DNA of 16,369 bases, from positions 1,220,217 to 1,236,585 of the forward strand of contig CP136752.1 of the NCBI GenBank assembly GCA_033471095.1. The letters run 5' to 3'. Of this stretch, positions 1,312 to 16,277 are shown piece after piece (position 1 is the first letter of the stretch; each line of letters begins with the position of its first letter). A program made the position numbers and the translations under genes. This DNA comes from Candidatus Nitrosoabyssus spongiisocia. Lineage in GTDB: Archaea > Thermoproteota > Nitrososphaeria > Nitrososphaerales > Nitrosopumilaceae. The notes beneath the pieces were generated by a model, which saw only the letters and a list, made by a program, of their open reading frames with translations, had not been told where the DNA came from and did not search any database.

Positions 1312-1851
1312 TTAACTTACAGTGATACTTCCAACCATCCATGGATGGACTTGGCAATAATAGTCAAAAGTTCCAGTGTTTGTAAATAATTGTGAAAATG
1401 TAGTACCGCTAGCAAAGATTGAACTATCCCAACCATTTGGATATGCCTCACCTACTAGATTTGGATTTTCTTGAAGATTACCTGTAGTTACTGTGTGTAC
1501 TGCGATATCATCGTTAGTCCAAGTTACAGTATCTCCCACATTGATTTTTGCGTTAGATGGTGAGTAACATATATCGTTTTGTACACAATCCGGTGATCCA
1601 GCTCCATTAGGTATTGAAATAAGAACTCTTTTTGGAGCAGTATCTTTTTTTATCTTTTCTTCCATCATCATTTTCTCCATCATTTTCTCCTCTTCCATCA
1701 TTTTCTCCTCTTCCATCATCATTCTATCCGTGTTTTTATTATAATCTGCTGAACTGTCATCTGCCAAGCCAGACCATACAACTGCTACACCTACACCGAC
1801 AAATACAATAGCGATTGTCCACAACATGGCAGCTTTATCTACTGAAGTCAT
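1312..1851 (-). CDS. Membrane-anchored plastocyanin-like type-1 (blue) copper protein
   Basis: N-terminal hydrophobic anchor AAMLWTIAIVFVGVGVAVVW. C-terminal cupredoxin signature: VGDTVTWTNDDIAVHTV (His ligand) and FDYYCQVHPWMVGSITV (Cys-x2-His-x2-Met). Its stop abuts the uvrC stop (TAATTA, 1309-1314). Confidence 0.85.
   Translation of the reverse strand: MTSVDKAAMLWTIAIVFVGVGVAVVWSGLADDSSADYNKNTDRMMMEEEKMMEEEKMMEKMMMEEKIKKDTAPKRVLISIPNGAGSPDCVQNDICYSPSNAKINVGDTVTWTNDDIAVHTVTTGNLQENPNLVGEAYPNGWDSSIFASGTTFSQLFTNTGTFDYYCQVHPWMVGSITVS
1654..1722 (-). repeat. Met/Glu/Lys low-complexity linker (MMMEEEKMMEEEKMMEKMMMEEK) inside the cupredoxin gene
   Basis: Directly visible reiteration of catcattttctcctcttc-type units. 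It lies between the TM anchor and the cupredoxin domain. Confidence 0.8.
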
Positions 1852-1981: not shown

Positions 1982-3073
1982 ATGTTGAATAAATTAAAAT
2001 TTGGAATCCAAAATGGGTTAAATGTAGCCAGAGCTGGATATTCTATTGATCAAATACTTACTGCGTGTATGTTGGCAGACAAAACTGGTTATGATTCTAT
2101 TTTTTACATGGATCATACAAACGTACCACAATGGAAAAACGCAACTGTACTTGATCCCTGGGTTATGTTATCTGCAATTGCCGCAGTTACACAAAATGTT
2201 GAACTTGGAACATGTGTGACAGATGCCATTCGTCGTCACCCATCAAACATATCTCTTGCAGCAATTACCCTTGATCGTGTCTCCAAGGGACGAGCTATAC
2301 TTGGTATAGGTGCAGGAGAAGCACAAAACCTAAAAGAATTTTGCATACCTTTTGAAACACCTGTAAGTAAATGGGAAGAGCAAATTCAAGTTATTAAAAA
2401 ATTATACACATCAAACCCAGATAATGTGGTAGATTTTGATGGAAAATATTATCAACTAAAAGGAGCTTGTCTGCAAGCTGCCCCTATTCGTAAACCATAT
2501 CCACCAATATACATGGCAGCTGGAGGTTCGCGAACATTGAGATTAACTGGTAAATATGGTAATGGTTGGCTTCCAATTGGATATACCCCAGAGTTGTTTG
2601 AAGATCACGCAAATAAGATTAAAGAGTCAATGGATTCAAACAATCGATCTCAGGAGGAAAAGGATAATTTCCAATATGCTCTTGACATTGATGTTTATTT
2701 TTCCGAAGATGCCGAAGAGTCTTGGGCAAAGATGAAAGAGGCAATAAAAGTAAGCCTTTTCAAACCCGAAGTATTACGTGTACATAATCTTAAAGAAATT
2801 CAAGGTTTTGATTTCAAAAAATACTTTACAGAATACTCTATGTCAAATCAAGAGTGGATTGTAAAGATGCGAGAGGCTGCCACCACAATTCCAGATAATA
2901 TAGCACGTTCATCTATCGGAGTCGGTACGGTTGACGATATAATACCCGTATTTGAGAAATTCATGAACAAAGGCGTAAATCACTTTGTTATTAGATTTTG
3001 GGGCAAGAATTATTTTGGCAGTATTGATAAATTTGCCAGTAGCGTAATGCCACGTTTAAAAGAACTTGTCTAA
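1982..3073 (+). CDS. Luciferase-like monooxygenase (LLM) family, probable F420-dependent oxidoreductase
   Basis: 363 aa. It has an LLM-type TIM-barrel pattern: KFGIQ...GYDSIFYMDH, ...RAILGIGAGEAQNLKEFCIPFE...WEEQIQVIKKLY, ...PPIYMAAGGSRTLRLTGKYGNGWLP. Cofactor and substrate are not determinable from sequence. Confidence 0.8.
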   Translation: MLNKLKFGIQNGLNVARAGYSIDQILTACMLADKTGYDSIFYMDHTNVPQWKNATVLDPWVMLSAIAAVTQNVELGTCVTDAIRRHPSNISLAAITLDRVSKGRAILGIGAGEAQNLKEFCIPFETPVSKWEEQIQVIKKLYTSNPDNVVDFDGKYYQLKGACLQAAPIRKPYPPIYMAAGGSRTLRLTGKYGNGWLPIGYTPELFEDHANKIKESMDSNNRSQEEKDNFQYALDIDVYFSEDAEESWAKMKEAIKVSLFKPEVLRVHNLKEIQGFDFKKYFTEYSMSNQEWIVKMREAATTIPDNIARSSIGVGTVDDIIPVFEKFMNKGVNHFVIRFWGKNYFGSIDKFASSVMPRLKELV

Positions 3074-3103
3074 TTTTTAATTATTTTAATAATACTAAAG
3101 TTA

Positions 3104-3133
3104 GGTTCTGTTGCAACTTTGGGTGTTACTCAT
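3104..3133 (+). repeat. Copy 1 of a ~30-nt dispersed motif (subtype 1): ggttctgttgcaactttgggtgttactcat
   Basis: Matches copy 3 at 24/25 of the first 25 nt, and the reverse complement of copy 4 at 22/25. It lies 30 nt after the LLM gene stop. Its function is unknown. Confidence 0.75.
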
Positions 3134-3172
3134 AAATCAATGAATTATAATTGTTATTATAAAAACAGTAAA

Positions 3173-3367
3173 TTATACCACAAATGTGTTCACAAATTGT
3201 AACGAATCAATAATGTATTTCCTTGTTAATGGCAGTCCTGATACAATCTTAGAATTATATTTTTTGCTTTTCATAACACTGCAACAGTTAGGCACACTAG
3301 GGGACTCGCTCAGATGCCCATTTACGATTTTATACAAATCTCTTGCGTGTATTTCTATTTGTGACAC
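3173..3367 (-). CDS. Hypothetical small protein (64 aa, GTG start)
   Basis: ORF only. Its composition looks more protein-like than the overlapping plus-strand ORF 3186-3407. I recognised no family. Confidence 0.25.
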   Translation of the reverse strand: MSQIEIHARDLYKIVNGHLSESPSVPNCCSVMKSKKYNSKIVSGLPLTRKYIIDSLQFVNTFVV

Positions 3368-3408
3368 TCCGTTCTGCCTAGCGTCATTCGTTCATAATAT
3401 TCGATAAA

Positions 3409-3928
3409 TTGTCAAACTTTAAAATTATTGGTATATCAATTATGGCCATCATCATAAGTTTGGGATTTGTGGCTTTGACCACACTATCTATTTCAAATAT
3501 TCCCAGTATTAATGAATATGTTGGTCTTTATGACAAAAGTGTCGAATTATTAAACAAGATGAAAGAAGTACAGAAACTAAACAATGAATTGATACAGTTA
3601 GAATCTTACGCAAATGCTGCAACCTTAGAACGTGATAAACTTTGAGACAGTTCAATAAGATATATGCTGAAATCACCACAGAGTATAATGAAGAGTATAT
3701 AGTCTATTAAACACTCTTTTGACAAGATACTCTACAAATGATCAATGGGATCGTTATGATGAAATTTTACAGTATATGACCGTATTAGAAAATAATTATT
3801 TAAAAGATACCAATGCTCATAATGCTCATTTGAGTAATTATTTTGATGATCTTTTAACATAACGTTCAACATATAATAACAAATACGGTGATTTGGCAAA
3901 TAAGATATCTGATATTATTGACAAGTAG
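3409..3928 (+). pseudogene. Fragmented gene for an N-terminally anchored coiled-coil protein
   Basis: ORF 3409-3645 encodes a TM helix (IIGISIMAIIISLGFVALTTL) plus a coiled-coil-like segment. Coding-like sequence resumes in another frame (STNDQWDRYDEILQYMTVLENNYLKDTNAHNAHLSNYFDDLLT, from 3731). An in-frame TAA at 3860-3862 interrupts it, and it continues RSTYNNKYGDLANKISDIIDK to the TAG at 3926-3928. Confidence 0.35.
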
Positions 3929-3988
3929 TGAATAAAATGTATTTGAGATTCTTTTTTATACACTGGATAAAAACGGAGACAAAATAAC

Positions 3989-4180
3989 ATGGATGTTTTA
4001 TTGATTGTATATCTCACGATTAATATTTTGATTGCGTATATCAATCAAGCAGATCTATCTTTTACACATTATCTTGGCAGATATGGATTTTATATTCTTC
4101 TAGCAGGATTATTAATTTATGGTTCATATATGTTGATTACAAGAAATAGTGATAAATCCAAGAAGAATCAAAAGAAATAA
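3989..4180 (+). CDS. Hypothetical small membrane protein (63 aa)
   Basis: Two hydrophobic segments (VLLIVYLTINILIAYI and FYILLAGLLIYGSYMLI) and a Lys-rich tail. ORF evidence only. Confidence 0.4.
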   Translation: MDVLLIVYLTINILIAYINQADLSFTHYLGRYGFYILLAGLLIYGSYMLITRNSDKSKKNQKK

Positions 4181-4209
4181 AATTAAAATAGAGATTATAG
4201 TATCGCTCC

Positions 4210-4239
4210 ATGAATAGCACCCGAATTTGCAATAGAGCC
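4210..4239 (-). repeat. Copy 2 of the ~30-nt motif (subtype 2, inverted); reverse complement ggctctattgcaaattcgggtgctattcat
   Basis: Matches the reverse complement of copy 4 at 23/25 core positions. It lies 30 nt after the stop of ORF 3989-4180. Confidence 0.75.
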
Positions 4240-4462
4240 TTTACTATGATTATTAACAATTAACTCATTGCCACTAGTACCAAGTTTATTTGGTGTGGAT
4301 TTTACAGATATGTCACATAAATAGTCGGCAAATATCTCAGATTGAGTTTTTAAATTAATAGTATCAGATTCGTCATATTGCATATATCAAATATTTAATT
4401 TTTTTCCATCACATCATTGTGGTCAAAATTAGATTTGAGTGAAATGATTTTATGTAAAGAAT

Positions 4463-5383
4463 TTAAGATACGAGTTTGACAGATTTAATTTTTTTATGTA
4501 GATAAACAAATGCCAATGTTGGTAGACCAACATAAATTAGCAAGTTGATAGCAATTACAAGTAATCCCAAAGCCAACACACTATTCTCCGAGTCATCTAC
4601 CATCGTCATTATAGATACACTAGAGAGTAGAGGATATAGAATAGTCTGAATTATTTCACGCAGTAGAGGGTTTTCACGCTCAGCATCTGCAATTACAGGT
4701 GAAAAGGTGTAATAGATTTGGTTGAATGATGTTATGAAGGATATTCCAGGTAGACTAGTCATTAAAGTTGTATCACGTATCTCTCTGAGCATTTGTACTT
4801 GTTGTGAAAGCTCAGTTCCATATACTGCTGTTGCGATTAGACAACCACCTTTACCAGGAGAAGTGGTAGTAGAGTTATCATCCTTTATGGTTTTATCATC
4901 CTTTATGGTTTTATCATCCTTTATGGTTTTATCATCCTTTATGGTTTTATCGTCCATCATAATATCATCATCCTTTATGGTTTTATCGTCCATCATAATA
5001 TCATCATCCTTTATGGTTTTATCATCCTTTATGGTATTATCGTCCATTATGGTACCGGTAGATGTAACAGGTAATGTAGAATCAAAAGTGATGGAACCGG
5101 TGGGTTGAGAAATATCTACTAATTTTTGTTCACTTGTAAAGAAAGTATTAGAGTATACGCTAGCCTTTACAAATACAAAGCGTTCATCAGAAGACACTAG
5201 ACCCAAATAGACGACTCTATCAGAGTAGGGCTGTGTTAGGGAGAGTTGAGTTTTAATTACTCCTAGTTTGGAACTACTAATAGTAACAAAAGCATCATCA
5301 GATGATGGGCTAGCAATAATTTCAACTAGTTTTTTATCATCAGCTGACTTCCCAAGATACTTTGTGAATAATAGCCTCTGCAA
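4463..5383 (-). CDS. CFI-box-CTERM-type membrane-anchor protein with an acidic (DDKTIK)n linker
   Basis: C-terminal block GGCLIATAVYGTELSQQVQMLREIRDTTLM...FNQIYYTFSPVIADAERENPLLREII. It is followed by hydrophobic segments (VLALGLLVIAINLLIYVGLPTLAFVYL) and a basic tail. This matches my memory of the CFIATAAYGS...VQ.LR.FRD CFI-box C-terminal domain. There is no signal peptide. The called TTG start sits directly after a stop codon and overlaps the upstream ORF by 44 nt. Confidence 0.7.
   Translation of the reverse strand: MQRLLFTKYLGKSADDKKLVEIIASPSSDDAFVTISSSKLGVIKTQLSLTQPYSDRVVYLGLVSSDERFVFVKASVYSNTFFTSEQKLVDISQPTGSITFDSTLPVTSTGTIMDDNTIKDDKTIKDDDIMMDDKTIKDDDIMMDDKTIKDDKTIKDDKTIKDDKTIKDDNSTTTSPGKGGCLIATAVYGTELSQQVQMLREIRDTTLMTSLPGISFITSFNQIYYTFSPVIADAERENPLLREIIQTILYPLLSSVSIMTMVDDSENSVLALGLLVIAINLLIYVGLPTLAFVYLHKKIKSVKLVS
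4878..5057 (-). repeat. Ten tandem 18-nt units (tcatcctttatggtttta, variant tcgtccatcataatatca) encoding DDKTIK / DDDIMM
   Basis: Counted directly. Four perfect units run from 4878 to 4949. Interleaved variants follow to 5057. The array is in frame (6 aa per unit). Confidence 0.9.
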
Positions 5384-8300
5384 TTATTGGGGCTTGACCA
5401 CCAGTGAATATACGACCTGCGCCGCCGCCTCCTGAGCTACTGCCATCACCACTACTAGTAAATGGAATAGGTGCAGGTACTTGAGTACTAGTGGCACCGG
5501 TGGAAGATGTTAGAGCATAGGTGGATAGGTGAGTGGTGTAAATTGTTACATGAGTGTTGTCATCTACAAAACATTCGTTTGTGGAAGTAGTGGTTAAAAG
5601 AGTATTAATTTCTGCGATATTACTAGTACCACAGGATGACATCTGGGTTGGTGTAGAGCCAATAGTATTTACATAATATGCATTATAATTATTTCCACCT
5701 TGATTTTCAAATACAATAGATACAACTGTATCACCTAGGTTGAGATCAATTGTTACATCTCCCAAAGTTATAGCTGTAATCGTTACATGACTAGTAGTAG
5801 TCTGACCTGCAGTTGTAGATGGTACAGTAATAGTAGCAGTACGTGGTGCAAGGAATTGCGAATCCCAAGTACCATCATGAGTAATAATAGTACTAGTAGG
5901 TATCATGACTGTAATGTCATTAGTAGATACAAGTTTGGCAGTTAATCCTGCAGTGATATTAGTAGTGTTTAAAGTAGTAGCGATATAATTGATAGTAACA
6001 TTTTGATGTTCAGGTGTAACAATTAATGGTACGTCTATATGAAGAAGTGTAGGAGACACCATCTGATCGCTTGATGTAACGTTACTTTGGACGTTTAAGC
6101 TATTTTCTGTATTAAATATACCATTATTTACAGCGTCTAAAACAGAATCTGTAGGAAAATGTACATTAGCTCCAGAACTATGTTGTAGATTTGTGTTAAC
6201 CACATGTTCAGATATATTGTTACTAAAAGTAAAAACCAAAGTAGGATTGTTTGTAGAATCAACATTAGTAGTAGTGAATGCTCCTGAAGTTATACCCAAT
6301 CGTGATGAATTAGGTATGATTACATTTTCACTAAATGTAACAGTTAGAGTATGTGCTAAAGTGTCATATATTGGAGTATTAACGACTGTTGGTCGTATAG
6401 TGTCACGAACAACTATAATTCTATTTACTTGAACGGCATTATTTCCTGCCGAATCAACAGAGTTGTATGTGATGGTGTAATTGCCTACAGTATCTGTATC
6501 TACAGTGTCACCACCAATGACGATAGGAGAGTCATCATCAGTAGTGGCGTTTTGCTCATTATATGTGGAGTTTATGTTTAGTGTTATGGTACTACTGCCA
6601 TTCAGTGTGATTACTGGGGGAATAGTGTCACTAACAACTATAGTTCTATTCACTTGGGTGGCATTATTTCCTGCTGAATCAACAGAGTCATAGGTGACGG
6701 TATAATTTCCCACGAGAGATGAATTTACAGTGTCACCACCAATGACGATAGGAGAGTCATCATCAGTAGTGGCGTTTTGCTCATTATATGTAGAGTTTAT
6801 GTTTAGTGTTATGGTACTATTACCATTCAGTGTGATTACTGGGGGAATAGTGTCACTAACAATTACAAGCCTATTCACTTGGGTGGCATTATTTCCTGCT
6901 GAATCAACAGAGTCATAGGTGACGGTATAATTTCCCACGAGAGATGAATTTACAGTGTCACCACTAATTGTTACTGGAGAGTTATCATCAGTAGTGGCGT
7001 TTTGCTCATTATATGTAGCGCCAACAAATAGTGTTATGGTACTATTGCCATTCAGTGTGATTACTGGGGGAATAGTGTCACTAACAATTACAAGCCTATT
7101 CACTTGGGTGGCATTATTTCCTGCTGAATCAACAGAGTCATAGGTGACGGTATAATTTCCCACGAGAGATGAATTTACAGTGTCACCACCAATTGTTACT
7201 GGAGAGCCATCATCAGTAGTGGCGTTTTGCTCAGAGTAGGATGAGCCAAGTTCTACATAAACAGTAGCATTACCAATTAGTGTGATTACTGGGGGAGTAT
7301 CATCTGGTGCATCAGAAATTATTACAGTTCTATCAACTTGGGTGGCATTATTTCCTGCTGAATCAACAGAGTTGTATGTGACGGTATAATTTCCCTTGAG
7401 AGATGAATTTACAGTGTCACCACCAATTGTTACTGGAGAGTTATCATCAGTAGTGGCGTTTTGCTCATTATATGTAGAGCCAACAAATAGTGTTATGGTA
7501 CTATTGCCATTCAGTGTGATTACTGGGGGAATAGTGTCACTAACAATTACAAGCCTATTCACTTGGGTGGCATTATTTCCTGCTGAATCAACAGAGTCAT
7601 AGGTGACGGTATAATTTCCCACGAGAGATGAATTTACAGTGTCACCACCAATTGTTACTGGAGAGCCATCATCAGTAGTGGCGTTTTGCTCAGAGTAGGA
7701 TGAGCCAAGTTCTACATAAACGACATTATTACCATTCAGTGTGATTACTGGGGGAGTAGTATCTGAAATGTTGTTAATTACAGGTTGATTCACAAAGTTT
7801 TCTAGTGTTATGTCAGTATTTTGAGTAGAGTTTATTCCACCACTAGTTTTAGTATATGAGATAATTATGGTTTCATTTGCCAAGAGATTTCTGCTTAAAT
7901 TCAGAGTAATTGAAGAGGAGTTTGATGTTATACTATCTATTGTAGCAGATGTTCCATTAAGAGCAAAGTCGGTTATAGTGGCCGAGTAAGTAATGTTTTC
8001 ATTAAAAGTAATTATAATGTTATCACCTTGTGTATTGGTAATAGCAGAAGTTATCACTACACTTCTATCTTCAGGTGTAGATATAGTAAAGAAAGTAGAA
8101 GGAGAGTTTTGATTTGCATACTCTGTTGCAATCCAGTCTGCAGAGCGAGCAGTAGATGATAGTCGGAATTCATCTAATTTGCCATTAAAGAATTGATTAA
8201 ATACCCAATTGATTTTTCCAATATAGTTTGTTGTTCTATTCACATCATTAGATGTATGCACAGCACCACTAGTAATTGAGGTACCATTGTGATAAATAGT

Positions 8301-8582
8301 TGCTGTACCTGATGATTCATGTACAACTGTAAAGTATGCCCATTGACCTTTCTGCAAAACACCACTAATTGTGACATTCTGAGATACGTTACCTCTTAGC
8401 ATATCATATGTCAAATCCGTGTTAGCATAAGGGGAATAATCCAATATAGGGCTTTGAAATACAATATTGTCTTGTGCCAGACCATTGCCAAAATCAACGA
8501 ATCTAGCAAAACCTCTATTGCCACCAATATTTGCCCATACCGAGATGGTAAAGTCTGTATTGTAGAATAGACTACCTGCCAA
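5340..8582 (-). CDS. Large surface protein segment: LamG (concanavalin-like) domain + Ig-like repeat + 6x DUF5011/HYR-like Ig repeats + Thr/Ser/Asn-rich beta-rich C-terminal half
   Basis: LamG motifs: FTISVWAN, GQWAYFTVVHESSGTATIYHNG, FNGKLDEFRLSSTARSADWIATEYANQ. Six 75-78 aa repeats follow the pattern PPVITLNG..Y.EQNATTDD.SPVTIGGDTVNSS.VGNYTVTYDSVDSAGNNATQV. N-x-S/T sequons are very dense. The called TTG start is mid-domain, and the frame stays open upstream to 8759. No signal peptide or anchor is present. Confidence 0.8.
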   Translation of the reverse strand: MAGSLFYNTDFTISVWANIGGNRGFARFVDFGNGLAQDNIVFQSPILDYSPYANTDLTYDMLRGNVSQNVTISGVLQKGQWAYFTVVHESSGTATIYHNGTSITSGAVHTSNDVNRTTNYIGKINWVFNQFFNGKLDEFRLSSTARSADWIATEYANQNSPSTFFTISTPEDRSVVITSAITNTQGDNIIITFNENITYSATITDFALNGTSATIDSITSNSSSITLNLSRNLLANETIIISYTKTSGGINSTQNTDITLENFVNQPVINNISDTTPPVITLNGNNVVYVELGSSYSEQNATTDDGSPVTIGGDTVNSSLVGNYTVTYDSVDSAGNNATQVNRLVIVSDTIPPVITLNGNSTITLFVGSTYNEQNATTDDNSPVTIGGDTVNSSLKGNYTVTYNSVDSAGNNATQVDRTVIISDAPDDTPPVITLIGNATVYVELGSSYSEQNATTDDGSPVTIGGDTVNSSLVGNYTVTYDSVDSAGNNATQVNRLVIVSDTIPPVITLNGNSTITLFVGATYNEQNATTDDNSPVTISGDTVNSSLVGNYTVTYDSVDSAGNNATQVNRLVIVSDTIPPVITLNGNSTITLNINSTYNEQNATTDDDSPIVIGGDTVNSSLVGNYTVTYDSVDSAGNNATQVNRTIVVSDTIPPVITLNGSSTITLNINSTYNEQNATTDDDSPIVIGGDTVDTDTVGNYTITYNSVDSAGNNAVQVNRIIVVRDTIRPTVVNTPIYDTLAHTLTVTFSENVIIPNSSRLGITSGAFTTTNVDSTNNPTLVFTFSNNISEHVVNTNLQHSSGANVHFPTDSVLDAVNNGIFNTENSLNVQSNVTSSDQMVSPTLLHIDVPLIVTPEHQNVTINYIATTLNTTNITAGLTAKLVSTNDITVMIPTSTIITHDGTWDSQFLAPRTATITVPSTTAGQTTTSHVTITAITLGDVTIDLNLGDTVVSIVFENQGGNNYNAYYVNTIGSTPTQMSSCGTSNIAEINTLLTTTSTNECFVDDNTHVTIYTTHLSTYALTSSTGATSTQVPAPIPFTSSGDGSSSGGGGAGRIFTGGQAPIIAEAIIHKVSWEVS
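6408..7766 (-). repeat. Six tandem coding repeats, period 225 nt (one of 234), DUF5011-like Ig domains
   Basis: The copies fall into subtypes a,b,a,b,c,c. Subtype a reads VYVELGSSYSEQ..DDGSP. Subtype b reads ITLFVG.TYNEQ..DDNSP. Subtype c reads ITLNINSTYNEQ..DDDSPIVIGG. This indicates a higher-order duplication. Confidence 0.9.
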
Positions 8583-8759
8583 GTCTGGAAGATCAAGATA
8601 ATTTACGTAGTCTGGGTATAATCCATAAAAGTTTAATCCATTACCAATTTGTGCAGATACTGAATTATTAGGGCTAAAGGCAAAACGGTTTGGAGTCTGT
8701 GGTGTTGCATGACAATCATTCCCTGATGAGTCTAGGGTAGAGTTTGCAGTAAAAGTGGA
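8583..8759 (-). other. 177-nt nominally intergenic stretch that is stop-free, in frame with both neighbouring ORFs, and encodes the N-terminal strands of the downstream LamG domain
   Basis: My translation: STFTANSTLDSSGNDCHATPQTPNRFAFSPNNSVSAQIGNGLNFYGLYPDYVNYLDLPDL. It runs straight into (L)AGSLFYNTDFTISVW. There is no ATG, GTG or TTG within these 59 codons. Confidence 0.65.
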
Positions 8760-11162
8760 TTAATCCATGTGATAAATTATTTCATAGTCTGAATCCCAAA
8801 CATTATCATGTATAATAGTTGCCGCTAATGAGACATTATAATACATGTAGAGTATGGTATCACTGGTATTGCTCAAAGTAGGTAGACGAACCCAAGCTAC
8901 TAGAGTACCGGTAGTAGCATTATTAGTAAATGACTCAATTTCATGCTGTAATATAGTAAATCCATCACTGCTAGTGAAAATAATATCGGCTCCGTTAGGC
9001 AGAACAGCTGAATTGTTCAAAGCAGAATCAGAGATACTTACTAGAAGGGTAAAGTTTTGAAGAGTTGTAGTTATTTGGTTACTGTTAATAGTAATTTTCT
9101 GTCTAGTATCCCACAAGGAAGGTAAATCAAAAAATTGAACATTATTAGTGATTGGTTGATTTGTAAAGTTTGCAAGTGATAAATCATTCACGTTTGTAAT
9201 ATTACTAGTTGTTTGATTATATGATACTGTTAATGGCAATACAGGTGGAATGTTAGAGTCTAGTGTTAGATTGATGGCAGTGTCATTATGTCTAGTTATA
9301 CTAGTTGTAGCAATACCTGAAATACTTACTGCAAAGTCAGTTGGAGAAGTGGTATTGGTAAGAGTGACTACTTTATCAAAGTTGACAGTTATGTTGTCAC
9401 CTCGCTGGTTTGTGTAAGCGTTAACAAAGATTGGAGGTGGTAGAACATTATTAGTGATTGGTTGATTTGTAAAGTTTGCAAGTGATAAATTATTTACGTT
9501 TGTAATACTACTAGTTGTTTGATTATATGATACTGTTAATGGTAATACAGGTGGAATGTTAGAGTCTAGTGTTAGATTGATGGCAGTGTCATTATGTCTA
9601 GTTATACTAGTTGTAGCAATACCTGAAATACTTACTGCAAAGTCAGTTGGAGAAGTGGTATTGGTAAGAGTGACTACTTTATCAAAGTTGACAGTTATGT
9701 TGTCACCTCGCTGGTTTGTGTAAGCGTTAACAAAGATTGGGGGTGGTAGAACATTATTAGTGATTGGTTGATTTGTAAAGTTTGCAAGTGATAAATTATT
9801 TACGTTTGTAATACTACTAGTTGTTTGATTATATGATACTGTTAATGGTAATACAGGTGGAATGTTAGAGTCTAGTGTTAGATTGATGGCAGTGTCATTA
9901 TGTCTAGTTATACTAGTTGTAGCAATACCTGAAATATTTACTGCAAAGTCAGTTAGAGAAGTGGTATTGGTAAGAGTGACTACTTTATCAAAGTTGACAG
10001 TTATGTTGTCACCTCGCTGGTTTGTGTAAGCGTTAACAAAGATTGGAGGTGGTAGAACATTATTAGTGATTGGTTGATTTGTAAAGTTTGCAAGTGATAA
10101 ATTATTTACGTTTGTAATACTACTAGTTGTTTGATTATATGATACTGTTAATGGTAATACAGGTGGAATGTTAGAGTCTAGTGTTAGATTGATGGCAGTG
10201 TCATTATGTCTAGTTATACTAGTTGTAGCAATACCTAAAATATTTACTGCAAAGTCAGTTGGAGAAGCGGTATTGGTAAGAGTGACTACTTTATCAAAGT
10301 TGACAGTAATATTGTCACCTTGCTGGTTTGTATAAGCACTAACAAAAATTGGAGGTGGTAGAACATTATTAGTGATTGGTTGATTCACAAAGTTTTCTAG
10401 TGTTATGTCTGTATTTTGAGTAGAGTTTATTCCACCACTAGTTTTAGTATATGAGATAGTGATGATTTCATTTGCCAAGAGATTTCCTCTTAAATTCAGA
10501 GTAATTGAAGAGGAGTTTGATGTTATACTATCTATTGTAGCAGATGTACCAGTAAGAGTAAAGTCAGTAGTAGGAATAACCGAATAGATAATGTTTTCAC
10601 TAAAAGTAATTATAATGTTATCACCTTGTGTGTTGGTAATAGCAAAAGTTATCGCTACACTTCTATCTTCAGGTGCAGATATAGTAAAGAAAGTAGAAGG
10701 AGAGTTTTGATTTGCATACTCTGTTGCAATCCAGTCTGCAGAGCGAGCAGTAGATGATAGTCGGAATTCATCGAATTTGCCATCAAAGTAGGAATCAGTT
10801 CCCCAATTGGATCTTCCGATATAGTTTGATGCTCTATTCACATCAAGAGATGTATGTACGGTATCACTAGTAATTGAGGCGCCATTTTTGTAGATAGTTG
10901 CTGTACCTGATGATTCATGTACAACTGTAAAGTGTGCCCATTGACCTGTCTGCAAAACGCCTCTAACTGCGATACCCAGAGAGTAGGCACCCTGTAGCAT
11001 ATTATATCTTAAACCATGGATAAGTTCATAGTAAGCAAATAGAATATTGTCTTGTCTCTCACCATTGCCAAAATCAACGATTCTAGCCTGACTTTTAATG
11101 GCATCAATATTTGCCCATGCCGAGATGGTAAAGTCTGTATTGTGGAATAGACTACCTTCCAA
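8760..11162 (-). CDS. Large surface protein segment: LamG domain + Ig-like repeat + 4x 102-aa Ig-like (SwmB/Big_5-like) repeats + C-terminal DUF2341 domain
   Basis: The LamG region is similar to that of the downstream ORF. DUF2341-like block: LWDTRQKITINSNQITTTLQNFTLLVSISD...NGADIIFTSSDGFTILQHEIESF...LVAWVRLPTLSNTSDTILYMYYN...VWDSDYEIIYHMD-stop. The called TTG start is mid-LamG, and the frame is open upstream to 11339. No signal peptide is present. Confidence 0.8.
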   Translation of the reverse strand: MEGSLFHNTDFTISAWANIDAIKSQARIVDFGNGERQDNILFAYYELIHGLRYNMLQGAYSLGIAVRGVLQTGQWAHFTVVHESSGTATIYKNGASITSDTVHTSLDVNRASNYIGRSNWGTDSYFDGKFDEFRLSSTARSADWIATEYANQNSPSTFFTISAPEDRSVAITFAITNTQGDNIIITFSENIIYSVIPTTDFTLTGTSATIDSITSNSSSITLNLRGNLLANEIITISYTKTSGGINSTQNTDITLENFVNQPITNNVLPPPIFVSAYTNQQGDNITVNFDKVVTLTNTASPTDFAVNILGIATTSITRHNDTAINLTLDSNIPPVLPLTVSYNQTTSSITNVNNLSLANFTNQPITNNVLPPPIFVNAYTNQRGDNITVNFDKVVTLTNTTSLTDFAVNISGIATTSITRHNDTAINLTLDSNIPPVLPLTVSYNQTTSSITNVNNLSLANFTNQPITNNVLPPPIFVNAYTNQRGDNITVNFDKVVTLTNTTSPTDFAVSISGIATTSITRHNDTAINLTLDSNIPPVLPLTVSYNQTTSSITNVNNLSLANFTNQPITNNVLPPPIFVNAYTNQRGDNITVNFDKVVTLTNTTSPTDFAVSISGIATTSITRHNDTAINLTLDSNIPPVLPLTVSYNQTTSNITNVNDLSLANFTNQPITNNVQFFDLPSLWDTRQKITINSNQITTTLQNFTLLVSISDSALNNSAVLPNGADIIFTSSDGFTILQHEIESFTNNATTGTLVAWVRLPTLSNTSDTILYMYYNVSLAATIIHDNVWDSDYEIIYHMD
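9137..10360 (-). repeat. Four tandem near-identical coding repeats, period 306 nt (102 aa)
   Basis: The landmark gaacattattagtgattggttgat recurs at 9137, 9443, 9749, 10055 and 10361. Unit: NQPITNNVLPPPIFVNAYTNQRGDNITVNFDKVVTLTNTTSPTDFAVSISGIATTSITRHNDTAINLTLDSNIPPVLPLTVSYNQTTSSITNVNNLSLANFT. Confidence 0.9.
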
Positions 11163-11339
11163 GTCTGGAAGATCAAGATAATCTCCGTTGTTGTTGTCTA
11201 CTCCATCAAAGTTTAGTCCATTACCAATTTGTGCAGATACTAAATCATTAGATTCAAAGGGAGTAGAGCCTGTAGATAGTGGTGTTGCATGACAATCATT
11301 CCCTGATGAGTCTAGGGTAGAGTTTGCAGTAAAAGTGGA
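11163..11339 (-). other. Second 177-nt stop-free in-frame stretch encoding LamG N-terminal strands
   Basis: My translation: STFTANSTLDSSGNDCHATPLSTGSTPFESNDLVSAQIGNGLNFDGVDNNNGDYLDLPDL, then (L)EGSLFHNTDFTISAW. It has the same length and frame as 8583-8759. The ends are identical, and the centre is diverged but still open. Confidence 0.65.
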
Positions 11340-12748
11340 TTAATCCATGTGATAAATTATTTCATAGTCTGAATCCCAAACATTATCATGTATAATAGTT
11401 GCCGCTAATGAGACATTATAATACATGTAGAGTATGGTATCACTGGTATTGCTCAAAGTAGGTAGACGAACCCAAGCTACTAGAGTACCGGTAGTAGCAT
11501 TATTAGTAAATGACTCAATTTCATGCTGTAATATAGTAAATCCATCACTGCTAGTGAAAATAATATCATCTCCGTTAGGCAGAACAGACTGAATTGTTCA
11601 AAGCAGAATCAGAGATACTTACTAGAAGGGTAAAGTTTTGAAGAGTTGTAGTTATTTGGTTACTGTTAATAGTAATTTTCTGTCTAGTATCCCACAAGGA
11701 AGGTAAATCAAAAAATTGAACATTATTAGTGATTGGTTGATTTGTAAAGTTTGCAAGTGATAAATCATTCACGTTTGTAATATTACTAGTTGTTTGATTA
11801 TATGATAGTGTTAATGGTAATGCAGGTAGAATGTTAGAGTCTAGTGTTAGATTGATTGCAGTGTCATTATGTCTAGTAATACTAGTTGTGGCAATACCTA
11901 AAATATTTACTGCAAAGTCAGTTGGAGAAGTGGTATTGGTAAGAGTGATTTCTCTATCAAAGTTGACAATTATGCTGTCACCTCGCTGGTTTGTATAGGC
12001 GTTAACAAAGATTGGATATGATGGAACATTATTAGTGATTGGTTGATTTGTAAAGTTTGCAAGTGATAAAGTAGGATCTACACTATCAGTGATATTTGTG
12101 CCTGTATCGTTGTATGATAAAAGTGGAGAGTCGTCAAAAGATAGGGTAGAGTTTAGTGAAAGAATTATAGAAGTTGCATTATTACTAGTTATACTATTCA
12201 CAGAAGTGGATGAATTAATTATAGCAAAGTCGCTAAGGAATGTAGTACTACCTACTGTAATATTTTTAGAAAATACAACAATAATATTGCTACCAGTTGT
12301 ATCAGTATACACTCTACTAGGAGGATTCAGAGCTGACATTATTTGTTACACTAGAAATATTAATGGAACCAGAAGGGTGACCATCAATTCTTATCAGAGT
12401 CTGAATAGATGTATAAGATAGACTAAGACTAGTAGTAGGAGTTATGGGCGGAGATACAACTATGGCGATAGTATTAGCGTCAACATTATAAAAATCAGTT
12501 ATGTTATAGTTGGCAGGATTAAACACAAAAGATGAATTTAAATTAGTCCGAGTAGCTAAATCCGTGTATGTGATATTGGAACGAATCGGCACAGATATAG
12601 TTATCGTATCACCATCAGTATTAGTAGATGCATTTATAGGTGCATATTGTCCAAAAGCAGAATCTAGTGGAAAGAGCAAAGTGGCAGAGAGAACGATAAT
12701 AGCAGTTAAAGAGAGAGTCATCACATATGAATGATAGACATTATGCAA
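11340..12748 (-). pseudogene. First module of the surface-protein locus (signal peptide + Ig-like repeats + DUF2341), disrupted by two frameshifts
   Basis: Signal-peptide-like start MTLSLTAIIVLSATLLFPLDSAFGQ; the ATG at 12721 is likelier than the TTG at 12748. The frame changes near 12325-12345 (...ISSVTNNV | NPPSRVYTDTTGSNIIVVF). It changes again at an extra A at 11588: agaacagActgaattg versus agaacagctgaattg in the paralog at 9001-9015. After that, the DUF2341 sequence continues open in the locus frame to the TAA at 11340-11342. Confidence 0.65.
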
Positions 12749-12793
12749 TATTTATCAAAAATAATAAAATGATTTATAATTGTTTGTTTGATG

Positions 12794-12823
12794 GGTTCTG
12801 TTGCAGCTTTGGGTGTTATACAC
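12794..12823 (+). repeat. Copy 3 of the ~30-nt motif (subtype 1): ggttctgttgcagctttgggtgttatacac
   Basis: One mismatch to copy 1 in the 25-nt core. It lies 45-75 nt upstream (on the minus strand) of the surface-protein locus start. Confidence 0.75.
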
Positions 12824-12863
12824 ATAACTTCTTTTTTGAACTTTAATAAAAAATTTATAATTT

Positions 12864-13500
12864 CTAAAAATTAACTGCACTTTTACCAAGTGCTGGTTTA
12901 CGCAGTTCATCTCGTTTACGCATCTTTTCTATTTTCTCAGATTTACGTATTCGTTTTATTTCTCCTTGTTTAGAATCATCCACATATAGACTATTTATCA
13001 GTTTTTTAAAATTTTTTCTACTTTGGCTTTAGTAGGAAATTCAGCCTCCATTTGACATTATATACTCTGACTAGGTAAACATCCAAAATTATTCTCATTC
13101 AGAATTTTAATTAAAAAACTATACACTGTCGATTCAGGATATCTAATTCTAACCAAAGCGGTATAACCATTCTTGAAATTATCACCTATGATTTTTGTAC
13201 CACCATACACAAAAGAGGCGACATTATTTTCCTTGATGAAATTATTCGAATATATATTAAATTGTTTGTAGTAGTTGAAAAATAATCTCTTGAATATATC
13301 ACACCCTTTTTTGTAGAAAAAAATAGTCGTTCTGCATACACTACTACTCCTTTGTATCTGAATTTCAATACTGCCTCCAAGTTAGAATTCACAGCCCTAT
13401 ACATCAAAGAATAGAATTCATGAATCATCATTTTCCTGTTTACTTTTTGTATTAGATCTAGTTTCACTGTAATTTTCATATGTAAGTGGACCAATTCCAT
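12864..13500 (-). pseudogene. Decayed gene for a ~210-aa protein with a C-terminal HTH-like segment
   Basis: ORF 13186-13500 continues in another frame as CDIFKRLFFNYYKQFNIYSNNFIKENNVASFVYGGTKIIGDNFKNGYTALVRIRYPESTVYSFLIKILNENNFGCLPSQSI-stop. The frame switch is plausible at the T6/A7 homopolymers (13307-13323). GYTALVRIRYPESTVYSFL resembles resolvase/IS-type HTH motifs. Further fragments follow stops and a shift: QMEAEFPTKAKVEKILKN and NSLYVDDSKQGEIKRIRKSEKIEKMRKRDELRKPALGKSAVNF. Confidence 0.45.
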
Positions 13501-13602
13501 CTCCTCTCTATTCCATTATGTTCCATTCGATTTACCCTCAAAGTCTGTTTTGATTTATGATGAAAGCGTTTTTGATTATATCTAGTAATTCACCTAAGCA
13601 TT

Positions 13603-13824
13603 ATGCAAATAATCGAAAGTGTAAATATTAAATTATTCCAGGGAGGATATATTTCAAATATGAATAATGATGGAAGATGTGTAATAATTAATCATACTGA
13701 TATTGTAAGTGCTACTGTGATTAACCATTTGCAAGTTTTTGAATCTTATACAGGTAAAGGACTTGTGTATGTGTGTGTAAAAATCACACAATTCGAAGAG
13801 CAGATTGCAAGCATATACAATTAG
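13603..13824 (+). CDS. Hypothetical protein (73 aa)
   Basis: ORF only. I recognised no family. Confidence 0.25.
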   Translation: MQIIESVNIKLFQGGYISNMNNDGRCVIINHTDIVSATVINHLQVFESYTGKGLVYVCVKITQFEEQIASIYN

Positions 13825-13886
13825 TCAAATGTATAGTGATTACAAATAGAGGATATACGAATAATAATTTTAGAATAATGGAATAG

Positions 13887-14739
13887 ACTAGACTGAATCT
13901 GTGTAAATACTGTAATTCAGGTAATATCAAAAAGGATGGTATGAGGAACAGCAAACAAGGAAAAATACAACGATTCAAATGTTTAGATTATAATAAACGC
14001 TTTACATCAAATTTTGAATTTGAGGGTAAACAATCTGATTCAAAAATAATTACAGGTGCATTACAAATGTATTATTCAGGTATGTCAGTTGGAGATATTT
14101 CAACACATTATGAGTTTGATACTGATGTGAATCGTTCTACTATGAATCGCTGGATTGCCAAATACCCTGTAATGTTAACTAGATACCTAGATGAAATCAT
14201 ACCACGTGTTGGCAATTGGATTCGTGCTGATAAAGTATGAATAAAGATGTCAGGTAAACCAAAATATCTATTTGCACCTATGAATAATGACACTCGTTTT
14301 GGTTTAGTTAAAGACATGGCCGATACTAAATTTCAGCACAATGCAGATTATTTGTTGAAACTGACTAAATTGACTACTGGGAATAAAACACCCAAGCATT
14401 TTATCACAGATGGATTACCATCATAGGGTAAATCGTCAAGAAGAGTATTTGGCAGAGAAACACAATATGATAAAAATATACACTTGAAAGGTGAGATGAA
14501 TAACAATATGATGGAACGTCTAAATGGTGAGATTCGTGATTGTAGGAAAGTGTTTAGAGGATTGAAGAGAAGATAGTCTGATTATTAATGGTGTGACAGT
14601 GTATTACAATTGTGCCAAAAAGTATAGTGGTATTGACAATAAGAGACCATCTAAGAGAGCAAAGATAACTGTCAAGGGTCGTAACAAGTGGAATACTTTG
14701 ATACAGAGTGCAAGTTTGCATGATTATGATACTATCTAA
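13887..14739 (+). pseudogene. Degraded DDE transposase (IS remnant; archaeal zinc-ribbon + DDE type, IS6/IS240-like by motif; family uncertain)
   Basis: Open from 13887 with no start codon: CKYCNSGNIKKDG...GKIQRFKCLDYNKRF, where the second zinc pair reads C-x2-Y. WIRADKV-TGA-IKMSGKPKYLFA sits where ADE.W.K.kGk.yLfa is expected (stop at 14238-14240). ITDGLPS-TAG-GKSSRRVFG sits where DGL.sY is expected. NNNMMERLNGEIRDCRKVFRGLKRR is followed by a stop and frameshift near 14570. The tail reads IINGVTVYYNCAKKYSGIDNKRPSKRAKITVKGRNKWNTLIQSA to the TAA at 14737-14739. Confidence 0.7.
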
Positions 14740-15525
14740 TTTTTGGGGCAAAATTTTCAATTAAACCTTTCATTGCATTATGACATTTCTTCATATCCTT
14801 GTTAATAGAGTCAGACTCTAATTGCTCAATATTGCATTCACTACATTTATCAGCATTCATATGGATTTTGTCATGTTTGCCACATAATTTTCCATTTGAT
14901 TCTAACGTTGGATCTAATCTAACGAGTCATTCAACATTAAACATACTCAAATAATGAAACATTGTACTGTGATTTATAATAAGATCAGCAAGGTGCACTT
15001 TATCAGATATGTCCTAAAATTAATTCATCGCTCATTGGTCTTATCCCAATTAGGATAAAAACATAATAATTTCAATTTGTTAAAATTGTCAGTATAGACA
15101 TTTAATTGCTTGAATATATCCTCATACTGTGATGACACCTGTTCATTGTAGGTTATATCAGTATCTTTCAATCCCTCAGTTGCCTGCTCATATTTATCAC
15201 GAGATAAAGTTTACTATTTTATAATAATAGATTGGTAAAGTATCCTGCTTTCTTGTGATGATTAAGAAAATGTTTCATCCAGTAATCTTTTGTAATATCT
15301 TTTTTCTCAAAATGGAAATTACATAATGTGCACATTAGATGATTATTCATGGGATAAACATGTTAATGAAATTGCTGACTGATATTCAAATTTATCACAT
15401 AGTATGTCACTATGATTCATTAAAGATTTTGCATATTTTGCACTATATCTAACACTATTCCATATATTTTTATGAGAAATATGGATTTTAGAATCATCGG
15501 ACACGATTATTTTTAAATAATTCAT
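14732..15525 (-). pseudogene. Heavily decayed gene of unknown family (fragments in three frames)
   Basis: Fragments, in order:
- MNYLKIIVSDDSKIHISHKNIWNSVRYSAKYAKSLMNHSDILCDKFEYQSAISLTCLSHE-stop
- NNHLMCTLCNFHFEKKDITKDYWMKHFLNHHKKAGYFTNLLL-stop
- SRDKYEQATEGLKDTDITYNEQVSSQYEDIFKQLNVYTDNFNKLKLLCFYPNWDKTNER-stop
- DISDKVHLADLIINHSTMFHYLSMFNVE-stop-LVRLDPTLESNGKLCGKHDKIHMNADKCSECNIEQLESDSINKDMKKCHNAMKGLIENFAPKIR-stop
A HEPN/AbiV-like reading is only a faint impression. Confidence 0.4.
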
Positions 15526-15571
15526 ATATTTAGATCGGTAATGATGTTTTTAGTATTAAATTATTAGAACC

Positions 15572-15601
15572 ATTAATAACACCCGAATTTGCAATAGAAC
15601 C
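15572..15601 (-). repeat. Copy 4 of the ~30-nt motif (subtype 2, inverted); reverse complement ggttctattgcaaattcgggtgttattaat
   Basis: It differs from the copy 1 core only at the three subtype positions (7, 14, 17). It lies 43 nt upstream of the ATG at 15645 and is followed immediately by c + TAAAGT. Confidence 0.75.
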
Positions 15602-15644
15602 CTAAAGTAGAATATTTTTTAATGTGTATTTATAATGATAATTT

Positions 15645-16277
15645 ATGCAACATGTTGGAAAATTAAAAATTAAATCTATGGATAAAATTAGAGAGTTTCT
15701 AAATGAGGAACACGTCGGTAGAATTGCAAGTATTGATGATAAAGGATATCCACAGATAATACCTATGAATTTTGTTTATCTGCATGATTGTATCTATATG
15801 CATTCATATCATAGAGGTGAGAAATTAGAGAACATATTACAATGCTCAAAGGTGGGTTTTGAGGTAGATAGAGAATTAGAGTTTCTTCCATCATACTTTA
15901 AAAATCCACACGACGCGTCTCTTGCTGATACTCTATACATTAGTGTGGTGATTAAAGGTAATGGAGAATTGGTAGCGGATATGAAAGAAAAGACAGTTGC
16001 GTTAAACGGATTGATGGCAAAATATCAACCAGAAGGCAGGTATGATTTGGTGAATAGTGATGATAAAGTAGTTGATGCTGTAGCAGTGATAAAGATTATT
16101 CCTGATATAATTACTGGGAAATATAATATTGGACAAAATTTATCACAAAAAGATAGATTAATTCTTGCAGAGAATATACTTGAGCGTAACTCTACTACTG
16201 CAAAAAACACATTGCAAATAATGGGATTTGATGTAGTTGCCGATACATTGAAGATGAATAATATCTCTGAATGGTAA
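15645..16277 (+). CDS. Pyridoxamine 5'-phosphate oxidase-like (split-barrel) FMN-binding family protein
   Basis: The N-terminal pattern REFLNEEHVGRIASIDDKGYPQIIPMNFVYLHDCIYMHS...GEKLENI is typical of the PNPOx-like / Pyridox_ox_2 family. Met-12 (15678) is an alternative start. Confidence 0.75.
   Translation: MQHVGKLKIKSMDKIREFLNEEHVGRIASIDDKGYPQIIPMNFVYLHDCIYMHSYHRGEKLENILQCSKVGFEVDRELEFLPSYFKNPHDASLADTLYISVVIKGNGELVADMKEKTVALNGLMAKYQPEGRYDLVNSDDKVVDAVAVIKIIPDIITGKYNIGQNLSQKDRLILAENILERNSTTAKNTLQIMGFDVVADTLKMNNISEW

Follow-up and report, generated by a model that had tools for sequence, protein, structure and literature searches.

The IS6 family of insertion sequences (IS) is recognized by GG tips and by cTGTt and caaa motifs in its terminal inverted repeats (TIRs), together with 8-bp target repeats, and in the pseudo-compound transposons of the family the IS copies are found “invariably as flanking direct repeats” (PMC7986276). 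The TIR of IS26 is GGCACTGTTGCAAA, and the G at position 7 is fully conserved in the IS26 family TIR (PMC8477213). The TIR of IS257 is GGTTCTGTTGCAAAGTT (PMC4856351), and one IS6-family repeat of enterococcal plasmids reads ggttctgttgcaaagtttt... (PMC2920175). The locus described here occupies positions 3104-15601 of a 16,369-nucleotide (nt) stretch of DNA, referred to as the window, from the genome of “Candidatus Nitrosoabyssus spongiisocia”. It is very probably a 12.5-kb compound-transposon-like insertion with thaumarchaeal IS6 ends, composed of a shorter element (A), a giant surface-protein gene and a longer element (B). The host, an ammonia-oxidizing archaeon that lives in symbiosis with sponges, is reported as the archaeal symbiont of Aphrocallistes beatrix, a glass sponge, and has a genome of 1.45 Mb and 34% GC (PMC11525543).

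The whole window was searched with the degenerate 25-mer GGYTCTRTTGCARMTTYGGGTGYTA, allowing up to 3 mismatches, which returned exactly four matches, and no match was obtained across 200 shuffles of the sequence. Copy 1 (3104-3128, plus strand, GGTTCTGTTGCAACTTTGGGTGTTA) and copy 3 (12794-12818, plus strand, GGTTCTGTTGCAGCTTTGGGTGTTA) form a plus type and are identical to each other at 24/25 positions, copy 2 (4215-4239, minus strand, GGCTCTATTGCAAATTCGGGTGCTA) and copy 4 (15577-15601, minus strand, GGTTCTATTGCAAATTCGGGTGTTA) form a minus type with 23/25 identical positions, and copies of different type agree at 20-22/25 positions, the differing positions being 7, 14 and 17. An initial annotation of the window had listed the same four copies in alternating orientation and had divided them into two subtypes at these three positions, and the recount reproduced both the copies and the division. 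Its remark that the window contains no further copies also held when the search was relaxed to the first 12-13 nt of the motif. When the copies were aligned with their flanks, the outer edge of the motif was found to be sharp at the GG, and a few further similar bases were seen inward.

The motif start, GGTTCTGTTGCAA, is that of IS6-family ends. Its first 13 nt are identical to the IS257 TIR, and copy 1 agrees with the IS257 TIR at 15/17 positions and with the IS26 TIR at 11/14. Assessed by the GG tips, the cTGTt and caaa motifs, a G at position 7 flanked by T, and a G at position 10, the plus-type ends (GGTTCTGTTGCAAC and GGTTCTGTTGCAGC) show every feature of an IS6 TIR save the final base of caaa. 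Judged by sequence, the four copies are assigned as the TIRs of two decayed IS6-family (IS26/IS257-like) elements, with copies 1 and 2 as the outer and inner TIRs of element A, and copies 3 and 4 as the inner and outer TIRs of element B.

Element B (12794-15601, plus strand), a decayed element of the IS6 family, spans 2808 bp with copies 3 and 4 as its ends and contains an IS6-family DDE transposase pseudogene (13603-14727, plus strand). The short open reading frames (ORFs) between the two copies gave nothing useful when searched singly with Pfam, and the pseudogene ORFs were stitched into one frame before the profile searches. The stitched pseudogene matched the NCBIfam model NF033587 (“IS6 family transposase”) over model positions 1-193 of 202 with E=4.9e-21; its score of 75 bits is under the 125-bit cutoff, as expected because the gene has decayed. 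It also matched Pfam PF13610 (DDE_Tnp_IS240) with 27.9 bits against a cutoff of 27. In a tblastn search, residues 48-366 of the IS6 transposase of Nitrosopumilus ureiphilus (P0007) aligned onto 13767-14721 with 59% identity, and this protein and a second intact homologue (P0001) score 126.8 and 128.4 bits, respectively, over the NCBIfam IS6 cutoff. A database search recovered 974 homologues, mostly of about 370 amino acids (aa), from Nitrosopumilus, Nitrosarchaeum and metagenomes, one of them annotated as “IS6 family transposase [Nitrosopumilus ureiphilus]”. The pseudogene is interrupted by three in-frame stops, ending at 13886, 14240 and 14426, and by a frameshift near 14570; there is probably a second frameshift near 13770, and the N-terminal part probably starts near 13603 in a different frame. 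The presence of this pseudogene between copies 3 and 4 overturns the earlier statement that the motif is explained by no gene. No extra TIRs, of the kind that would make B a normal IS of 0.8-1.3 kb, were found close to the pseudogene.

Element A (3104-4239, plus strand) is a 1136-bp non-autonomous IS6-family derivative bounded by copies 1 and 2. It contains only short decayed ORFs, and no trace of an IS6 transposase was detected in it by tblastn with IS6 transposases. The left ends of A and B are homologous over 34 nt with 88% identity, and the right ends over about 240 nt with 63-81% identity, which extends the relationship well beyond the 8-10 nt of inward similarity to which the initial annotation had limited it. 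The homologous ends are collinear and in the same orientation, and the middles of the two elements are unrelated. Because the end homologies are collinear and no transposase remnant is present, A is taken to be a non-autonomous relative of B in direct orientation. With the end order plus/minus, plus/minus and these collinear homologies, the cargo lies between IS-derived elements in direct orientation, which is the arrangement of IS6 pseudo-compound transposons.

The outer tips of the 12.5-kb unit are flanked by a target-site duplication. The right copy, the 8-bp CTAAAGTA at 15602-15609, abuts copy 4, and the left copy, CTAAAGTTA at 3095-3103, adjoins the GG tip of copy 1 and corresponds to CTAAAGTA with one extra T. 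These outer flanks, CTAAAGT(T)A and CTAAAGTA, form a duplication around the whole of 3104-15601 only, and no matching 8-bp flanks were found around A alone or B alone. In a simulation using the window's own sequence, the chance of a duplication-like flank match this good was about 0.002, and that of an exact 8-mer flank match was 1.4e-4.

An empty site corresponding to this insertion was found on a contig from another metagenome (L023), in which the flanking genes are 89-90% identical to those of the window. The gene order on this contig is UvrB, UvrA, UvrC, copper protein, luciferase-like and PNPOx, the last two genes being 67 nt apart, and the site is without the giant gene, A and B. The spacer reads ...GTGTCAAAGTAAAATATTTTTTAAT... 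once, so that the duplicated sequence is single there (CAAAGTA), and when the window flanks are joined with one copy of the duplication they align end to end with the spacer at about 90% identity, like the flanking genes. In N. zosterae, the luciferase-like gene also lies about 1 kb upstream of PNPOx. Because of the empty site in L023 and the gene order in N. zosterae, the adjacency of the luciferase-like and PNPOx genes is regarded as ancestral and the 12.5 kb as inserted. The whole unit thus behaves as a block with one duplication, absent from the L023 site and present in another context on a further contig (L053), and it appears to have arrived as a single IS6-type compound transposon with the giant surface-protein gene as cargo. 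The proposal in the initial annotation that the copies are TIRs of a mobile-element family is borne out by the IS6 TIR match, the transposase pseudogene, the 8-bp duplication and the empty site. Its pairing of copies 1-2 and 3-4 as brackets stands in so far as there are two elements, but it is the whole of 3104-15601, and not each pair, that would have been inserted.

The second context is on ERZ25072740 contig ctg109156_2x_l (L053), which shares its metagenome sample with the empty-site contig, carries the only other homologue of the giant protein N-terminus found, and was compared up to position 19713. Its homologous composite adjoins rpS15, DHH and SerRS genes and has 85-94% nucleotide identity to that of the window. 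It begins with a copy-1-like TIR (6201, plus strand) and 280 nt of the left end of A, followed by an unrelated segment of 600 nt holding a 168-aa ORF, the reversed transposase pseudogene (7092-8038), the left part of B, a copy-3-like TIR (8963-8987, minus strand) and the giant gene, and the outer 14 nt of a copy-2-like TIR lie at the end of the stretch compared. The homology to the window begins exactly at the GG of copy 1; the sequence to its left is unrelated, and the 8 bp left of the copy-1-like tip are CGAAAAAT. This homology break at the GG tip marks the tips as boundaries of a mobile element and places the assembly in no fewer than two genomic contexts. The two sequences remain homologous on the cargo side of copy 3, which is kept at the same place beside the start of the giant gene.

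Two further features of L053 were recorded. At 8988-8999, 12 extra nt (GGTCAATAGACA) abut the copy-3 tip on the cargo side, a point that corresponds to 12793/12794 in the window. The window segment 4226-4379, which takes in the outer portion of copy 2 and the sequence flanking the giant gene on its 3' side, is identical to L053 19560-19713 at 153/154 positions, and this patchy identity, compared with 85-94% elsewhere, hints at recent recombination or exchange. A simple inversion between the window and L053, which would leave one element with two plus-type ends and another with two minus-type ends, was considered and is not supported, as the 600-nt L053 segment that would be needed to match the middle of A is unrelated to A or B.

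In the mechanism proposed for the locus, an IS6 DDE transposase, either B's own before its decay or a related one acting in trans, would have bound the tips of copies 1 and 4, and the whole unit would have been inserted in the 67-nt spacer that separates the luciferase-like gene from PNPOx, 8 bp of target being duplicated. The transposase gene would have decayed afterwards, and the ends are most likely fossils now without function. Elements A and B were presumably already different elements when the unit moved.

Several observations weigh against this interpretation. The left copy of the duplication contains the extra T, and position 7, the conserved G of the IS26 family, is an A in the minus-type ends (GGYTCTATTGCAAA). 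The flanking elements are not copies of one element: their homology is limited to 34 nt at the left ends and roughly 240 nt at the right ends, and their unrelated interiors are unlike the near-identical copies expected from a replicative IS6 cointegrate. Element A at 1136 bp and B at 2808 bp, like their relatives, are long compared with the typical IS6 length of 0.7-0.9 kb, and the IS6 review lists only a few members of up to 1.76 kb (PMC7986276). The transposase-bearing element of L053 has two plus-type ends, which implies that the end pairing has been reshuffled at least once and that the partners differ between lineages. The earlier suggestion that left and right ends differ in kind is accordingly one reading only, although the two subtypes themselves are real. 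Finally, the exact TIR subtype did not turn up again in the GTDB species genomes, JGI metagenomes or viral contigs searched, and an intact autonomous copy with these ends is not known. A search of other genomes had been recommended in the initial annotation; relaxed patterns gave 3 chance matches across 185,579 GTDB species genomes, from which the motif is otherwise absent, and 18 + 8 singleton matches in metagenome and viral contigs (including the JGI metagenomes), with no IS6 transposase near any of the latter.

Of the alternatives, the one that survives best, while still unlikely, is an IS6 cointegrate or translocatable unit, in which one IS and the giant gene on a circular donor would have been fused with the chromosome and the IS duplicated, the two copies then diverging into A and B. 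The canonical IS6/IS26 mechanism gives direct IS copies with one outer 8-bp duplication (PMC7986276), and the direct orientation and the outside duplication in the window agree with it. However, like ends differ at only 1-2/25 positions and the two copies of the duplication by one indel, yet the interiors are unalignable and A is without a transposase trace. Neutral decay from identical copies cannot give such a contrast, and large replacements must be assumed. A composite of two different elements is favored over a replicative cointegrate because of this difference between the ends and the interiors.

Less probable again, with only a slight chance of being correct, is that A and B are independent IS6-family insertions beside a resident surface-protein gene and were never a composite. 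The unrelated interiors of A and B would suit this explanation, and IS6 elements are often without their own duplications after secondary events (PMC7986276). Against it, the empty site of L023 is also without the giant gene and keeps a single 8-bp copy, the duplication is common to the outer tips only, and the assembly of the A end, transposase and giant gene is also found in the different context of L053.

The alternative offered in the initial annotation, by which the motif, some 45 nt ahead of start codons, would serve as a binding site for a transcription factor, as a promoter element or as a small structured RNA, is very improbable. Copies 3 and 4 do lie upstream of the giant gene and PNPOx, at distances of 44-73 nt and beside AT-rich TATA-like sequence, but L023 has a conserved PNPOx upstream region that is without the motif, copies 1 and 2 are directed at the 3' ends of genes, the motif matches a known transposon end, and, apart from the 3 chance matches, it is absent from other Nitrosopumilaceae and from the GTDB species genomes. 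An RNA element or tRNA fragment is likewise unsupported, the window having no match in an Rfam scan or with ARAGORN.

The population of the symbiont was sampled with ten contigs (L004-L013) from one HiFi metagenome, ERZ20067936, that share an identical luciferase-like protein. Copies 1, 2 and 3 are in the same places and orientation in 10/10 contigs, and the right junction at copy 4 is identical in the two of the ten that were followed that far (L051 and L052). Across the strain contigs, the transposase gene is the same pseudogene and the identity in element B is 96-99.5%. The population showed neither presence/absence polymorphism nor inversion, as judged from ten contigs for copies 1-3 and two contigs through copy 4. 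Both kinds of polymorphism had been put forward as checks in the initial annotation: comparison of the assembled contigs gave no inversion of 4240-12793 in any of the ten, and presence/absence of the unit, invariant within the strain population, was found at a wider distance in the L023 relative without the whole unit. Site-specific invertase sites that flip the surface-protein locus as a phase-variation switch can accordingly be given almost no weight, for although copies 2 and 3 are mutually inverted around the surface-protein gene and the end arrangement differs between the window and L053, the strain contigs retain one order and orientation, and the window is without a tyrosine or serine recombinase gene, its only enzyme of the kind being the DDE transposase. 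The earlier mention of recombinase target sites applies only in that DDE-transposase sense, no invertase and no inversion in the strain contigs having been found.

Among the strains, element A is 98-99% identical overall and copy 1 is invariant in 11/11 sequences. Copy 2 (4215-4239, corresponding to about 12234-12260 in L004-L013) has four polymorphic positions within its 25 nt. Two of the strain contigs, L009 and L010, both come from ptg000012l (2,152,149 bp), so that the locus is present twice on one contig whose length exceeds the published 1.45-Mb genome; ptg000012l is probably two strain haplotypes concatenated by the assembler.

The cargo (4240-12793) contains the giant surface-protein gene, which runs on the minus strand from about 12721 down to 4463 and encodes a protein with Pfam matches to Laminin_G_3, DUF2341, SWM_repeat and Ig-like domains. 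The gene is divided into 5 ORFs in the window, the first being R1F52_07070, compared with a single ORF of 2027-2823 aa in the ten strain contigs, where it lies from about 12482 onward. With this range of lengths across ten contigs of one metagenome, the giant gene is a repeat-number hotspot within a single symbiont population. In-frame TAA codons at 8760-8762 and 11340-11342 (minus strand) break the gene in the window, both at junctions of repeated modules (...YHMD*STFTANSTLDSSGN...), and 10/10 strain contigs have CAA at the equivalent sites, where the gene reads through. The identical nonsense change in both repeats suggests either that the modules have undergone gene conversion or that the consensus assembly produced an artefact. 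The C-terminal part of the protein (4463-5383, minus strand) contains 18-nt tandem repeats, especially at 4841-5086, which encode (KTIKDD)n and are followed by a conserved segment, GGCLIATAVYGTELSQQVQMLREIRD..., and then by a hydrophobic tail; it has no Pfam match and may be an uncharacterized anchoring domain.

A 62-aa ORF (4195-4383, minus strand) was called in all strain contigs. It has its start in the cargo and terminates within the TIR of element A, where copy 2 is read as GSIANSGAIHG, and it is probably a spurious chimeric ORF. The possibility that the copies are a coding remnant was raised by an in-frame GS(V/I)A..G(V/A).H, suspected to be a fragment of a LamG N-terminal strand. This was rejected, as the real DSSGN... 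strand is located elsewhere, copy 1 begins at the homology breakpoint, and all strain differences in copy 2 are non-synonymous. The remaining genes of the window encode UvrC, a blue-copper protein (1312-1851, minus strand), a luciferase-like oxidoreductase (1982-3073) and, at 15645-16277, a member of the PNPOx family that is 100% identical to a protein of a “Ca. Nitrosoabyssus spongiisocia” metagenome-assembled genome. In the blue-copper protein, the signal anchor and the cupredoxin domain are joined by a linker of Met/Glu/Lys-rich repeats, MMMEEEKMMEEEKMMEKMMMEEK.

An unexplained repeat can now be annotated as four putative IS6-family ends, together with a single dead transposase and an insertion of 12.5 kb whose boundaries are known. 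In this archaeal symbiont of a glass sponge, the giant, repeat-rich surface protein would then be encoded on transposon-borne DNA, its gene being absent at this site in a close relative and present elsewhere in another contig, and this fits with cell-surface variation in streamlined symbionts being driven by mobile DNA. It is conceivable, if rather doubtful, that the 12.5-kb unit is still a mobilizable vehicle for the hypervariable gene. If so, its well-kept ends would be recognized in trans by intact 370-aa IS6 transposases circulating in the sponge-symbiont population, the adhesin-like gene would be carried from locus to locus and from one Nitrosoabyssus lineage to another, and the near-identical 154-nt stretch in common with L053 would be a trace of recent exchange. 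IS6 elements, their TIRs, duplications and compound structures are already known as a textbook mechanism, and NCBI names the homologous transposases. New are the sponge-symbiotic thaumarchaeal host, the giant length-variable surface-protein cargo and the non-identical flanking elements, and the thaumarchaeal branch of the family is documented here with its long elements, passenger genes and extended transposases.

Intact members of this branch were found in other thaumarchaeal sequences. The element of N. ureiphilus (CP026995; L014 2814-5174) is 2361 bp long, holds an IS6 transposase gene, and has a 30-nt TIR, GGTTCTGCTAACTTGTCGAGACCTGAATTA, that starts GGTTCTG and is matched at 29/30 positions, with a perfect 8-bp duplication, ACACAATG. 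A 5217-bp element on two HiFi contigs (L015 and L016, 123-5339) carries a DNA methyltransferase (N6_N4) gene and a transposase gene between perfect 25-nt TIRs, GGTTCTGTTGCGTTACCGTGTGGTA, which have 17/25 positions as in the window motif. The transposases of the intact relatives are about 370 aa long and include an N-terminal extension of about 130 aa with Cys/His motifs, which gave weak matches to IS1 and IS256 zinc-binding domains. On contigs L017-L021, the intact IS6 copy P0001 is located between a 561-aa gene with a weak phage-integrase match and a 184-aa ORF weakly matching Monooxygenase_B (AmoB-like). An archaeal IS6 branch with long elements (2.4-5.2 kb), passenger genes and GGTTCTG TIRs of about 25-30 nt accommodates the 2808-bp element B.

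Compared with the described IS6 family (IS26, IS257/IS431, IS1216 and IS6100), the window has the same GG-tipped TIR with CTGTTGCAA, a DDE transposase matching IS6 models and an 8-bp target duplication. It differs in a TIR of about 25 nt rather than 14-20, in a thaumarchaeal host, in elements of 1.1-2.8 kb (2.4-5.2 kb with passenger genes in the relatives) rather than about 0.8 kb with a single ORF, and in the length of the intact thaumarchaeal transposase, about 370 aa with its N-terminal extension of about 130 aa. Element A resembles non-autonomous IS derivatives of the miniature inverted-repeat transposable element type in having both family ends and no transposase, but it is long (1136 bp) and its decayed ORFs are unrelated to the transposase. 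The thaumarchaeal IS6 elements of L014 and L015/L016 belong to the same transposase lineage as the window (53-62% identity) and have in common with it the GGTTCTG start of the TIR, the 8-bp duplication, their length, and extra ORFs between the left end and the transposase gene, whereas their TIR pairs are perfect or nearly so and diverge from those of the window from position 8 or 12 onward, and they are single elements with intact transposases, unlike the composite of the window. The IS6 pseudo-compound transposons (Tn4352, Tn610 and Tn4003) likewise carry cargo between two direct IS-derived elements; in the window, by comparison, the flanking elements are not mutual copies, the transposase is dead, and a giant surface protein takes the place of a resistance gene as cargo.

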